Assembly: GCF_006345805.1 (NCBI RefSeq)
Contig: NC_043006.1
Span: 64,604,001-64,668,000, forward strand
Length of the DNA: 64,000 nucleotides
From: Octopus sinensis
Taxonomy: Eukaryota
Direction of reading: 5' to 3'
Shown here: positions 24,531 through 46,589 of the stretch, in pieces
Layout: each line of letters begins with the position of its first letter
Position numbering within the stretch: the first letter of the stretch is position 1
Notes under the pieces: model-generated
Database searches by the model: none
What the model was told of the DNA's origin: nothing
What the model saw: only the letters and a program-made list of their open reading frames with translations
Program-made: the position numbers and the translations under genes

Positions 24531-24947
24531 CCTTATTTCTTTACTGCCCACAAGGGTTACACACATAGGGGACTAACAAAGACAGACAAACGGATTAAGT
24601 CGATTATATCGACCCCACTGCGTAACTGGTACTTATTTAATCGACCCCGAAATGATGAAAGGCAAAATCGACCTCGGCGGAATTTGAACTCAGAACGTAG
24701 CGGCAGACGAAATACCTATTTCTTTACTACCCACAAGGGGCTAAACACAGAGGGGACAGATAAGGACAGACACGCGGATTAAGTCGATTACATCGACCCC
24801 AGTGCGTAACTGGTACTTATTTAATCGACCCCGAAAGGATGAAAGGCAAAGTCGACATCGGCGGAATTTGAACTCAGAACTTAACGCAGACGAAATACCG
24901 CTAAGCATTTCGCCCGGGGTGCTAACGATTCTGCCAGCTCGCCGCCT
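24531..24947 (-). mobile_element. Head-to-tail dimer of group B SINE
   Basis: Two consecutive units, 24531-24715 and 24716-24947. Confidence 0.85.
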
Positions 24948-27044: not shown

Positions 27045-27872
27045 TCTTATTTCTTTATTGCCCACGAGGAGCTAAACATAGAGGGGACAAACAAGGACAG
27101 ACAAAGGGATTAAGTCGATTACATCGATCCCAGTGCGTAACTGGTACTTAATTTATCGACCCCGAAAGGATGAAAGGCAAAGTCGACCTCGGCGGAATTT
27201 GAACTCAGAAAGTAACAGTAGGCGAAATACCGCTAAGCACTTCGCCCGTCGTGCTAACGTTTCTGCCAGCTCACCCTGAAACATAGAGGAGACAAACAAG
27301 GACAGACAAAGGGATTAAGTCGATTACATCGACCCCAGTGCGTAACTGGTACTTTAATTTATCGACCCCGAAAGGATGAAAGGCAAAGTCGACCTCGGCG
27401 GAATTTGAACTCAGAAAGTAACAGTAGGCGAAATACCTATTTCTTTACTACCCACAAGGGGCCAAACACAGAGGGAACAAACAAGGACAGACACACGGAT
27501 TAAGTCGATTATATCGACCCCAGTGCGTAACTGGTACTTAATTTATCGACCCCGAAAGGATGAAAGGCAAAGTCGACCTCGGCGGAATTTGAACTCAGAA
27601 AGTAACAGTAGGCGAAATACCGCTAAGCACTTCGCCCGTCGTGCTAACGTTTCTGCCAGCTCACCCTGAAACATAGAGGAGACAAACAAGGACAGACAAA
27701 GGGATTAAGTCGATTACATCGACCCCAGTGCGTAACTGGTACTTATTTAATCGACCCCGAAAGGATGAAAGGCAAAGTTGACCTCGGCGGAATTTGAACT
27801 CAGAACGTAGCGGCAGACGAAATACCGCTAAGTATTTCGCCCGGCGTGCTAACGGTTCTGCCACTCTCGCCC
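27045..27872 (-). repeat. Tandem array of four group B SINE units with an internal duplication of about 390 bp
   Basis: Junction GCCAGCTCACCCTGAAACATAGAGGAGAC occurs at 27265 and 27655. Three units share the variant CAGAAAGTAACAGTAGGCG. Confidence 0.9.
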
Positions 27873-28069
27873 TGAACAAACGTTTTCTATTATAGCCCCG
27901 GACCTGCCAACGTTTTGAGATACAACCCCAAAGATCAGCCACAGTTCTCAGCTGCTCAAAATGCACTCTGACAATCGCTGGTGTTTACATCACTGTGCTG
28001 CGAACTTGAGTTTATTCTATTCGAATTTCCAAACTCATACCAATCAACATGGGACCAGTGAATAGACAA

Positions 28070-30486: not shown

Positions 30487-30836
30487 GAAGAAATTTATCT
30501 ATAATATTTATTGTGGCACTTACCGTTAAATTAGCAATTCATACATGTACTTCTATTTGGTTAATTTATATTGCATACAAAAATAAAAACAATTGCAGCG
30601 TGGAAGGTGTTTGTAAGCCATTTAAGAAACACACAAAAGCCGTTCGATTCACTTCAACATTTAAGTTTAATTTGTCAAAATATTTTCGTCGCTAAAATCC
30701 GCGACCTGTTCACTGACAAAAATCCGTGCTGCATCTCGGATTTTTGTCAAATTAAACTTAAATTTTGAAGTGAATCGAACGGCTTTTGTGTGTTTCTTAA
30801 ATGGCTTACAAACACCTTCCACGATGCAATTGTTTT
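30487..30836 (-). mobile_element. (TA)n-terminated fold-back element carrying a hammerhead
   Basis: 30586-30677 pairs with 30743-30836. Hammerhead at 30671-30720. Confidence 0.8.
30671..30720 (-). ncRNA. Minimal type I hammerhead with G3-C8 swapped core (GUGAACA)
   Basis: TTTGTCA-GTGAACA-G-GTCGC(GGATTTTA)GCGAC-GAAA-ATAT-TT-TGACAAA. Palindromic AATATT replaces stem III. Confidence 0.7.
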
Positions 30837-30883
30837 CGTTCCAGCACACGATCTCAGATCAAATCACTTGCTATGCGAGTACA

Positions 30884-32048
30884 TCTCTGTAAAAAATAAA
30901 AACATACTACATATCTACAACTGCTTACAAAAATAGAGATTACTGTATAATTTCATTCTTTGTTCATAATTTTTTGTTTACAATATTGAAAAAAATATGC
31001 CACCAAAGAAAAGTCGTAATCTCTCCAGAAACAAGTATAAAGCAAAAAGGATTGTAGAAAACCGAAGGCGAGAGTCTGAAGAGAGAAGCAAGATAAGGTT
31101 TTCTCAAGATCAGCAAAGGCATGCTGCAGCACGTCAGACAGAGTCTCAAGAGAGAAGAGAGATGAGACTTTCCCAAGATCAGAAAATGCATGCTGCAGCA
31201 CTTAATGCTGGATCATTAAATCGATGTTTTAATGATTGTACAGAGGTCCAATAGAATAGCTGTCTGAAAAACAGACTGCGTACAATTTCGTTCTTCACAA
31301 CGCCTGAAGCTGTTTTCAGATATGATCCATCCCATTCTGATAAAAATGATAACGCTGTCCAAATTGGTGTGCTAAACACAAATTATCGTTTCTGCAGAGG
31401 TTTAAAATTTTCAAATGGAACAAATGATATGTGCTGCTTAGGCGGAAAGGTAACATTGCCAGCACTACCAGCTTCTTCTCAACCTCTTCTAGAAGGCACT
31501 TCCATCAGTCAAAGGATTTTCTTAACAATATCAGACAATACAACTCTGCATTTCAAATGGCATCGTTCACTGCATCTAAGAAGATAGTAAAACATAAATG
31601 TCAAAGTTCAAAGGCAAGGGATGAAATGCACTAAACGATGTCATTGGTTCCCTGTTATCCACAAATGAACAACCACAGTTCCTCCAAATTAACTTTATGA
31701 GTGATGTAGGACAACAAACCCGAAGGTGTCAAAATTTCAGATGATGGGTCGTGTTAGACACAGCGCCGACTGCTGCAAAAGAGAGTATATCCACTGACAG
31801 CTTTTCGGTGCTTTAAAAAATCACATACCCCCCCCCCCCCCCCCGCAATTTTCCATGACAGGTTAAGGCTTGAAATATTTCAAACGGACGTATAGCATAT
31901 TGCTTAGTCGAATTAGCCCATCATTTACTCCACAAATGTTTTGTTGTCAAAGCTGCACTTTCCCATATTACCTGTTTCAACATAATTGTAATATATTATA
32001 TACAAAGTATGGTATTTTAATCCCGAGCAACGCCGGGTATCTCTGCCA

Positions 32049-32049
<1 letters not shown>
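30884..32049 (+). mobile_element. Internally deleted Helitron (Rep-helicase N-terminal remnant plus 3' hairpin)
   Basis: Reads QIGVLN..RFCRGLKF...MCCLGGKVTLP, FLNNIRQYNSAFQMASF and IGSLLS..QPQFLQI. The 3' hairpin CCCGAGCAACGCCGGG is followed by CCAG/T (mutated CTAG). The 5' boundary is tentative. Confidence 0.85.
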
Positions 32050-32138
<89 letters not shown>

Positions 32139-33861
32139 ATATTATATATATATATATCTGCTGCAATTTTTGCAACTTGTAATAAAGCCTGTCTTTGTAT
32201 GAAACAATTGTACTAAAAACTAATCCATTCTTGTTGCTTCTTTCTCGTATATATATATATAATATATATATATATAATTCAGTTAGAGACTATAAAAGGA
32301 TGGTGTCATCCAAGGAAATACTTGTTCAATAACTAGTATTCGGTAGTATATGTGTGTGATTTTGTGGAAATTTGGCAGTTAGTTTTAGCATAGCAAACAG
32401 CTACATTCGTATTCTGTCGTTCGCTGCTTTTGCTGTTGTTATAGCTGTTAAACCCCGTTAATTCTCAAGACGTTGTTGTTTAAGGTCATTGACTTTGATA
32501 TGTACTATTACTGCCTTTTTTCTCGTTTCCTCGTATTCTTTTACAGACCTGTTTAAGGTCGTTGACTTTAGACTCTGTTGCTACTATTGCTGTTTCGCTC
32601 CCAGTCAGCTTTCATCGAAGGCATTTGAGTTGTGACCATCCCATCTTAGTTTTAGATGAAGTGTATCATAATATACCAATGATCATAAATATTCCATCCG
32701 TGACTACTCCTACATTTACCAAGGCACAATGCACTTAGGACTACCTTATCCCATATGTTCTTTCTTTTTTTTTAGTAGGATGTGATTTCATGGACATTTA
32801 CTTACTATTTCTAGCAAGTCAAACGGAAATATAACATTTAAACTGAGGGTAATATTATATAATCTATCACAATGTATGCATATAAATCCCAAATTTTGGG
32901 CATAGGGCCAGCAATTTCGGGGAAGAGGTGTGTCGATGTAATGAACCACAGTGCTCAACTAGTACCCATTTTATCGACCCCGAAAGGATGAAAGGCAATG
33001 TCGACCTCACTGGAATTTGAACTCAGAACGTAAATACGGACGAAATGCCGCTAAGCATTTTTACTCGGAGCGCTAACGATTCTGCCAGTTCGCCGCTTTA
33101 TCATATTGTACACATATAAATATGATATATATGTGAATATGTATAAATAATATGTGCAAATATATGAGTTTGTATTTCTCTGAGTGTGTGTGTGTGTGTG
33201 TGTATAACGGAAGTAGATTCAAAATTCATATCTTCCGCCCCGGATACACAGGTATAGCTAGAATGTGTGCCGCCACCCCATACAGCAGACTCAAAAATGC
33301 CGCCCCCATAAAAGTATCACCCGTGGTGAACGATCACCTCGCTCCTTCTCACGGCTACGTTTCTGCTCGGACACTCATTAAAGAGAACTCCCGGAAAAAA
33401 CGTGCGCACTGGCTGACCACCAAGCAATGGTCACGCGAGCGTGGGCAGCGGGCGCGAGCAGCGAGCTGCTTCCAATAGACGCGCTGCTCTGCTACTGCTT
33501 GCCTCTGACCGCAAGAAGCAAACAAAACTATGATCTGCGCACGTGCTCCGCGACTTGACCTCGCGCGCATCGGCGAAACAGGGTCGAGGGGGTGAAGTAT
33601 GTGCGAGAATTGCATAGACGGGTATTGGGTCACCAAACGTGCTAACAGCATATTTTTAAACGATGGTGGTAGTAGAGTGGACAAACACACACATTAACAT
33701 ATATTATGGGCTTCCACATAGTTTCTGACAACCAAACTCACTCACAAGACGTTGGTCCACCCAGCGTTATAATACAAGGCACGGATCTTATCGCTTTGGC
33801 TGTGAGCATTTCCAAAAATTGAAGTTTACCGAAAATTTAAAAATTTACCACAATAATACAA

Positions 33862-34192: not shown

Positions 34193-35851
34193 ACTTGCCC
34201 AAATTGAATTGCTGGAGTTATTTCATTTTTTTTTTCCCCATTAAAATGTTTTTAAAAAGTTATAGAGGTTTAAAGTTTGATCATTTTCACCCAGTCACGA
34301 AATAGGATTTGGAAGCTGTCGTTTTGTGCATGACTGCACATTTTGTCGTCAACATCCTGAAAATAGCACTTATTGTCAATATTTGTAAACAACACGTTTT
34401 ATGTCTCCGGTAATTTCCTTTCATGTAAATAAGTATTTATGTTAATTTAAAAGATTTACCCCCCAAATCTTATTTAGCTGTTATTTTTAGCACACAGCAC
34501 AACCACCTCAATGCTCAACGATGAAAAGAAACGAGTAAACAAAGATTTAAGCATTCAATATACATTTAATGCAAATGCGATAAACAACACGTTGCATTTG
34601 ATAAACAAATTACAATTTTTACCAGAAAAATATGGAAGAATTAGATGAAAGTTCTCCGGTAATTTTCTTTCATGTAAATAAATGTGTATGTTAAATAAAA
34701 AATTTGCCAGCAAAATCTTATAAAACGACAATGTTCCAAAAGATGCACATATTTATATGTTATATATGAAAGTAAGAGTGAACAAAATAGGCTTTAAAAA
34801 GAAGCATTTAAGCACTAAGAGACAAACATTTAACTTTCGGTTTTAATTTTTTAAATATCCTCCTTTGTTTTCAATGTTTCCATAATAGAAGCGAAGTTAC
34901 TGGAGCTTGCTGCCATAATCACAAAGAACACAGAACACAAAACACGGCGTCAAATTTGTCAACACGTGCTTCTTCTCAGACAAAAATTTTTTCAAAGACT
35001 GCTCAGATTTGCTTGTTACTATGGCAACAGACACGTTGAGAGACAAAAGAGTTCTCATATTCCGCTTCTTACTCTCGAAGCAGGCATGAATGTGTCTGTG
35101 GCTTACGATTGGTTAAAATTACCAAAATGCTCAATCATTAATAACTCTTTATTTATTGATCTATAACGAAAATTACTTTCACGTCATTAATTAGCCTATA
35201 AAGTGTATAATTACACTGAATATGAAATCAATTCGAACAGAATTGATGCTGGTAGCCAAACTGATAAGATCCGAAGCCACTCGCTCAAAATGCCGCGCAG
35301 GAGGACCGAACCCAAAGCCACGTGGTTCCAAAGCGAGCTTCTTAACCACAGAGCCATGCCTGCGTCTGTATAACGAGCACTTTATTTTAACGACCTCAAA
35401 AGGATGAAATGCAAAGTTGACCTCGGCGGGATTTGAACTAGGAACATAAAGTGTCCAAATAAATACTGCAAAGCATTTGTCGACCTCGGCGGAATTTGAA
35501 CGCAGAACATAAAGGCAGACGAAATACATCGACCCCAGTGCATAACTGGTACTTAATTTATCGACCCCGAAAGGATGAAAGGCAAAGTCGACCTCGGCGG
35601 AATTTGAACTCAGAACGTAATGGCAGACGAAATACCGCAAAGCATTTTGGCCGGCGTCGTAACAATTCTGCCGGGCCCGACGCCTTAATACCACAATTTA
35701 TTTAAATATGCATATCGTCGTATTTAATCTTGCTGTTCGGCATGCATATCATATTAGTTGGCAGATATCAGCACGGATCAGTTTGTTCTTTAAAATTATA
35801 AACAAGACCATCGGATCATGTTAGATTTATTGGTCCGGAGAGTGCCTCAAG

Positions 35852-46280: not shown

Positions 46281-46577
46281 TATATATATATATATATATT
46301 TCGTTTTTGTATTTGGTTTGCAAGATTCTTTAAATGAATTCGTGTGTTGAAGCATATTGTTGTGTCTGGGGAGAGTCATTTTCTTTTTGTGCTTTATAAT
46401 GTAACACACTCACCGGTAAAATTTCCACTTATTTCTTATTTTTACTTCCTAAAATTTTCGTTGCATCTTGCAACCTTTTCAATAGGAAAATAAAAATTAA
46501 AATAAGTGGAAATTTTACTGGTGAGTGTGTTACATTATAAGTCACAAAAAGAAAATGACTCTCCCCAGACACAACAG
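46281..46577 (-). mobile_element. (TA)n-embedded fold-back element with a hammerhead as its loop
   Basis: 46358-46451 pairs with 46483-46576. (TA)n on both sides. Confidence 0.85.
46446..46488 (-). ncRNA. Minimal type I hammerhead with U3-A8 swapped core (UUGAAAA)
   Basis: TTCCTA-TTGAAAA-G-GTTGC(AAGAT)GCAAC-GAAA-AT-TT-TAGGAA. Confidence 0.65.
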
Positions 46578-46589
46578 TATATATATATA

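Follow-up and report, generated by a model that had tools for sequence, protein, structure and literature searches.

The stretch of DNA analysed here (hereafter the window) comprises 64,000 nucleotides of the Octopus sinensis genome (RefSeq assembly GCF_006345805.1, contig NC_043006.1, positions 64,604,001 to 64,668,000). On its minus strand, at 30671..30720, it carries a minimal type I hammerhead ribozyme motif with a G3-C8 core pair, an extra G and a palindromic helix III, in the middle of an inverted repeat of 95 bp, part of a dispersed retroelement—a Penelope-like element (PLE). Read along the minus strand, a 7-bp stem I (30720-30714 paired with 30677-30671) is followed by the core GUGAACA, in which G3 falls at 30713, C8 at 30708 and A9 at 30707, and by the extra G, which sits between positions 9 and 10.1 at 30706. 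Stem II (30705-30701 with 30692-30688) has five base pairs, closed by G10.1-C11.1, and an 8-nt loop; it leads into GAAA (30687-30684) and the palindrome AAUAUU (A15.1-AUAU-U16.1), which would form helix III. The canonical CUGANGA core is thus absent, with U4, G5, A6 and A9 kept. Since U17 is found at 30678, the triplet is UUU, and the hammerhead numbering predicts a cut between 30678 and 30677. Under the NUH rules, UUU would be a slowly cleaved triplet; U17 is common in the alignment of PLE hammerheads published in the supplement of PMC4209133. A sequence-only reading of this DNA had listed the 7-bp stem I, the 5-bp stem II, GAAA, the palindrome and the GUGAACA core, all of which stand, on the minus strand, while the extra G and the PLE context had escaped it. 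It was also right that searches for CUGANGA miss the motif: the descriptors of PMC4209133 (CUGANGA and U3-A8) would not catch a GUGAACA core.

The isolated 50-mer folds with both stems I and II (z = -3.4), and only 1 of 200 shuffles folded equally well. A descriptor admitting any Watson-Crick pair at positions 3 and 8 gave exactly two matches in the 64-kb window and none in 300 dinucleotide shuffles. The second match is a U3-A8 motif on the minus strand at 46446..46488 (U3 at 46482), which lies in another palindromic PLE insertion (~46298-46580), from a sister family with a homologous tail. One could suppose that the likeness is accidental, with hairpins in a palindromic foldback or in a DNA element resembling a miniature inverted-repeat transposable element mimicking a hammerhead; the hairpin-rich nature of the 95-bp inverted repeat would suit such an origin, as would the outcome of an Rfam scan of the window at gathering thresholds, in which no family was matched. 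The empty shuffles already speak against it, and so do the insertion anatomy, the parent element and the sister families described below.

The window insertion is a short inverted PLE insertion, made up of two 3' ends joined head to head; one of the two arms bears a tail, and a target-site duplication (TSD) bounds the whole. Direct-repeat and TSD searches place the left copy of the duplication at 30579..30589 (11 bp, or 13 bp counting a shared CA) and the right copy at 30892..30902. The inverted arm (30590..30736, minus strand) starts from the 10-nt loop in the centre, takes in the hammerhead motif and stops at an inner end, CAATTG, an end point also found in three copies of the parent element (L206, L220 and L222). 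At the head-to-head junction, a hairpin with 13-bp arms and the 10-nt loop (30714..30749) competes with stem I. The direct arm (30737..30832, plus strand) has lost its own motif, 41 nt, between the two stem I strands, which is why this copy spans 291 nt and full copies 332 nt. The tail of ~59 nt (30833..30891, plus strand) is present on this arm only and is homologous to the tails of sister families; a profile built from the latter scores it at 13.6 bits, the best of 1000 shuffles reaching 5.0.

A genome search with the window element returned 933 candidates, 40 of which were scored. Typical short copies are palindromes of ~290 bp whose two arms each carry the motif, with a loop of 10 nt at the centre and a one-sided tail of ~59 nt. 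Both orientations of the loop with respect to the tail occur (12 loci versus 8 among 30, 10 being unscored). The copies are dispersed or head-to-head, and there is no tandem array at the window locus. Of the 37 copies with both ends available, (TA)n adjoins the left end in 19, and 14 are accompanied by a direct repeat of at least 7 nt other than (TA)n, some of the short ones possibly being due to chance. TSDs of variable length fit target-primed reverse transcription, which again argues against a foldback DNA element. Many short copies also break within a few bases of one site, 20 nt upstream of the hammerhead, which may be a preferred stop of the reverse transcriptase (RT) or a preferred joining site.

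The parent of these insertions was reached through sequence upstream of the motif that is shared by two loci: this untranslated region (UTR) matches 652 places, and 13 of 30 fetched UTR copies run through a 1-kb UTR into an open reading frame (ORF). In the parent, the motif is situated ~1.0 kb behind an ORF for an RT with a C-terminal GIY-YIG endonuclease (EN) and ~170 nt from the element end, and it exists there outside any palindrome, which speaks against hairpins of a foldback element. There are two alternative end points of the copies, separated by 59 nt, and inverted pairs bearing the tail on one arm only occur at L220, L222, L223, L225, L226 and L227. Open frames of 793 aa (L220) and 717 aa (L222) contain RT and YIG motifs by inspection; their first residues apparently derive from the inversion junction, and both frames may be incomplete. 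A Pfam search of the L220 ORF gave no significant match. Of 4,904 candidate proteins, 293 proved homologous to the parent protein at E <= 0.001, including two named RT-domain proteins, and its EN region is 51% identical to elements matching PF01541. This RT plus C-terminal GIY-YIG architecture is the one described for PLEs (PMC8557442, PMC3846280), and the parent is separated from the Neptune-type elements of this genome at 100/100.

Three candidate readings of this material were dropped. Neptune-type PLEs found in a GIY-YIG search did not qualify as the parent, since they gave no match to the element at the nucleotide level and had an EN identity of only ~25%; the tail does not encode an ORF start, the parent motif being 1 kb behind the stop; and L214, suspected of being a chimera, turned out to be two adjacent insertions. 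As for the RT itself, 133 residues separate the RT3 (DV..LYP) and RT4 (GGAIG) motifs in L220:2615-4993 (minus strand), with an insertion of ~65-70 residues where an insertion-in-fingers domain would lie; canonical PLEs with a C-terminal endonuclease lack that domain according to PMC8557442. This insertion may mark a PLE clade that is undescribed or not yet placed. Metagenome relatives of the parent carry a U3-A8-like motif with C9 (L229:2496) and a canonical C3-G8 motif (L232:3668) behind their ORFs; no G3-C8 was seen in the 9 closest of the 73 relative loci, which were the ones scanned.

The G3-C8 core is a property of the whole family. With identical flanks, the genome holds 7,534 G3-C8 matches versus 518 in which G3 is joined by another letter than C, so that C8 accompanies 93.6% of 8,052 G3 matches; with both positions left free, 6,804 matches were obtained, and among the matches listed 92 of 100 were G3-C8, the other 8 being single changes. 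Both letters are near-fixed also in copies picked on other grounds, as the sequence-only reading had anticipated: 60 loci chosen by tail or UTR sequence, not by core letters, yielded 55 motifs, 51 of them G3-C8. A full-motif search for copies other than G3 gave 144 matches, mostly scattered single A, U or C variants plus a further family. We looked for traces of an intermediate. In two palindromes G8 is confined to a single arm, and a suspected G8 subgroup showed G8 in 6 of 21 matches, 3 of them from one duplicated locus; no fixed G3-G8 intermediate subfamily was found, the 20 fetched G3-G8 loci being spread over several subfamilies. In sequencing contigs—their runs bear the labels of six organisms, and some of them supplied hardly any contigs—no alternative letter at the core positions exceeded the 10% and 5% thresholds. 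Fixation within the family reflects descent from few source copies, not selection on each inserted copy.

Homologous families were compared in an alignment of 18 copies picked from five families (17 distinct rows). In sister PLEs, homologues with the canonical C3-G8 pair take up the corresponding place: a C3-G8 pattern in the same flanks has 328 matches (control, 1), the 20 fetched being mostly one sister family, with one (L092) behind a decayed related PLE ORF. A second sister family has U3-A8 (18 motifs, most of them following, at a distance of 460-830 nt, a GIY-YIG ORF whose EN is 51% identical to that of the parent), a further one has U3-G8, and family 5 combines C3-G8 with C at position 9 in all three copies seen (L028, L214). 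Across the alignment, positions 3 and 8 pair in all 17 distinct rows (C-G in 7, U-A in 5, G-C in 3 and U-G in 2), stem II is 97.6% paired with three of its five pairs changed on both sides, and A15.1-U16.1 pairs in 16 of 17 rows. Thirteen columns are invariant, namely U4, G5, A6, the extra G, G10.1, U10.2, A11.2, C11.1, GAAA and A2.1, and correspond to the catalytic core and the foot of stem II. None of 500 shuffles reached the covariation score, in a shuffle control that ignores relatedness. Together with the motif of the parent element, the C3-G8 sisters and the 17 paired rows contradict a fortuitous resemblance, which we regard as barely conceivable.

A scan that left both letters of the pair free, run downstream of the ORF at 50 GIY-YIG loci (3' regions), added C-G, U-A and A-U motifs in Neptune-type families, along with two low-scoring matches in which 3 and 8 are unpaired. 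The A3-U8 Neptune-type family has 509 matches (among those listed, 95 of 100 are A3-U8); its members (L079, L321-L325) show a 6-bp stem I, a very short stem II and a palindromic ACCGGU helix III. When each lineage is counted once, all 11 pair positions 3 and 8, with a permutation p of 0.0003 for a set that adds Neptune-type families whose motifs stayed unaligned; the value is 0.0002-0.0005 with three weak matches and 0.0008 without the family found by the C3/G8-fixed pattern. Because the lineages are kin, these p values are indicative only. Since the sister and Neptune-type families all pair positions 3 and 8, comparative evidence makes it very likely that the G3-C8 swap is compensatory, and the covariation among homologous families supports the earlier proposal of a compensatory double change.

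The predicted fold depends on the sequence context. The predicted pairing probability of stem I is 0.94 for the motif alone and 0.88-0.93 in the parent context (stem II, > 0.99), falling to 0.035 in the window context and to 0 in a full palindrome. These folding predictions suggest that stem I is outcompeted in the window copy, which is probably inert. Should the window copy itself be a working ribozyme, within a transcript of this locus that stems from the host or from a Helitron, it would at least start from a sound sequence: its 50-mer is the commonest version of the family (36 of 104 motifs) and folds well on its own. The stem I probability in the real context, the status of the copy as one of thousands dispersed in the genome and the deletion of the partner motif make this highly improbable.

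For the source elements, the motif likely still self-cleaves in the parent element RNA. Other metazoan PLE hammerheads show weak cleavage when dimeric (PMC4209133) or cleave with the aid of protein (PMC11167929), and in one of them the engineered swap C3G/G8C partly restores cleavage abolished by either single mutant (PMC11167929; also PMC8495972)—in agreement with the earlier statement that engineered swaps keep partial activity. The 3-8 pair also belongs to the active, cleavage-competent conformation (PMC3088659, PMC8495972), again as stated in the sequence-only reading. From the folding predictions and the engineered rescue, we infer a slow, dimer- or protein-assisted ribozyme retained in source elements and a dead insert in the window. 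Overall, we consider it probable that the motif is a 3'-end type I hammerhead of PLE source copies, with a compensatory G3-C8 pair and likely self-cleaving activity, and that the window copy is a passive, probably inactive fragment.

Several observations count against this conclusion. Among the G3 matches, 6.4% have no C8, about a third of them being G3-G8, and three G3-G8 loci form a small cluster sharing a loop II variant. In the fixed register of the alignment, stem I is only 50% paired across families, and the five homologous sister lineages alone give p = 0.10. Helix III has a probability of about 0 in the monomer, and pairing of two AAUAUU palindromes gains no more than -0.2 kcal/mol, a marginal value in keeping with other metazoan PLE hammerheads; the minimum found by cofolding differs from the dimeric hammerhead. 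Published metazoan PLE hammerheads cleave poorly in vitro (PMC4209133), cleavage is dispensable for insertion in vitro (PMC11167929) and, because the inserted DNA spans both sides of the predicted cut site, the insertion templates must have been uncleaved, in line with PMC11167929. The last three points bring into play a different role for the same RNA, in which a descendant of the PLE hammerhead keeps the fold and the 3-8 pair, serves as a binding or folding signal for the RT-endonuclease and barely cleaves. Such a role would also accord with hammerhead mutants that were without effect on insertion in vitro, with the absence of RNA-seq ends at the cut site in Anolis (both in PMC11167929), and with the tolerance of four different 3-8 pairs, an A9-to-C change in family 5 and a weak stem I in family 2. 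A pure binding site, in turn, need not keep G5, A6, G12, A13, A14 and U16.1/H17, all of which are kept, and the 3-8 pair that persists is part of the cleavage-competent conformation; we therefore regard a mere binding or folding signal as unlikely, though worth bearing in mind.

The cycle of the source element could be pictured as follows. Helix III would form between two motifs through the AAUAUU palindrome, or be helped by the element protein; G3-C8 would stand in for C3-G8, keeping the ribose of residue 8 positioned, and the RNA would be cut slowly after UUU. Insertion could begin at two RT starts, the tail end and CAATTG, on opposite target strands, whereupon two complementary DNAs copied from uncleaved RNA would join head to head—one motif being deleted later in the case of the window. 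A bolder proposal, to which we assign even chances, is that positions 3 and 8 are a freely exchangeable pair under selection for cleavage, the C-G, U-A, G-C and A-U ribozymes of the various families all being active. If so, CUGANGA surveys would have missed a large natural class, with more than 7,500 G3-C8 and 500 A3-U8 copies in one genome, and the missed hammerheads might include those of PLE clades reported to have none.

Other features of the window include a decayed ORF at 30997-32051, with two 69-bp repeats, a cysteine-rich stretch and a short end hairpin (32022-32037) before (TA)n, which we take to resemble an internally deleted Helitron. Pfam searches of two window ORFs, this one among them, gave no significant match, and its Atlas neighbours were eukaryotic clusters without a name and a PF21107 STPRs cluster at 0.88. 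In addition, an abundant repeat of ~190-205 bp, both tandem and dispersed, is found at 24534-24899, 27074-27876, 32890-33090 and 35380-35690; this is presumably a cephalopod short interspersed element.

The interest of the motif lies in the fact that C3-G8 is regarded as nearly invariant in natural hammerheads, G8 giving the catalytic ribose. A G3-C8 family beside C-G, U-A, U-G and A-U kin provides a natural covariation series for a pair so far studied chiefly by structural work and mutagenesis, and furnishes matched natural constructs for asking if cleavage is what preserves PLE hammerheads, a question left open in PMC8557442 and PMC11167929. It also follows that descriptor searches fixed on CUGANGA undercount, for example the one reporting Naiads without hammerheads (PMC8557442). 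What is new here is the copy number of G3-C8 on the scale of a family and the 3-8 covariation series within one genome. In the literature searched—figures, subscription papers and most supplements lying outside its scope—no natural G3-C8, A3-U8 or octopus PLE hammerhead was found; the G3-C8 pair mentioned in PMC3884650 is an engineered one, and none of nine 'GUGA' matches in the supplement text of PMC4209133 was G3-C8 at the core position. PLE hammerheads and natural U3-A8 have been published (PMC4209133, PMC3088659), as has a U3-G8 row in the supplement of PMC4209133, and the motif is a PLE-borne homologue of these with a natural G3-C8 pair, not a new ribozyme class.

Its closest counterparts are the metazoan PLE hammerheads of Cervera and de la Peña (2014; PMC4209133), all four of whose listed traits apply here. 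Both are sited in the PLE terminal repeat, occur by the thousand as solo copies that frequently lie close together on opposite strands, and show natural 3-8 covariation; they also have in common an additional nucleotide after position 9, the G10.1-C11.1 pair and a tiny palindrome for the putative helix III, whereas the G3-C8 core and the longer stem I (7 bp) set the present motif apart. Natural 3-8 covariation is also reported by Perreault et al. (2011; PMC3088659), in passages that name U3-A8 only. With the Nematis and Neptune elements of Craig et al. (2021; PMC8557442), the parent shares the RT, the CxxC zinc-finger linker and GIY-YIG, as well as tandem and inverted insertions, a (TA)n bias and a tail; its short linker resembles the Nematis rows of their Fig. 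S2, a likeness of the linker only and not a tree placement, while its RT3-RT4 span of 133 residues is about twice that of the canonical PLE rows of their Fig. S1. Non-LTR retrozymes (bioRxiv 10.64898/2026.07.22.740005) are likewise short, non-coding, PLE-derived units with type I hammerheads, but are arranged as head-to-tail tandem arrays, in contrast to the dispersed 5'-truncated or head-to-head insertions with TSDs seen here. Finally, the Poseidon PLE of Anolis carolinensis (Frangieh et al. 2024; PMC11167929) is a further counterpart. In both systems two RT start sites define the tail (the two end points 59 nt apart fit such sites), and the targets are AT-rich; the tail measures ~59 nt here and 30-40 nt in Poseidon, whose ORF starts inside the hammerhead, whereas the octopus motif lies ~1 kb behind the stop codon. 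The very swap that was engineered in Poseidon is, in the octopus element, natural and family-wide.
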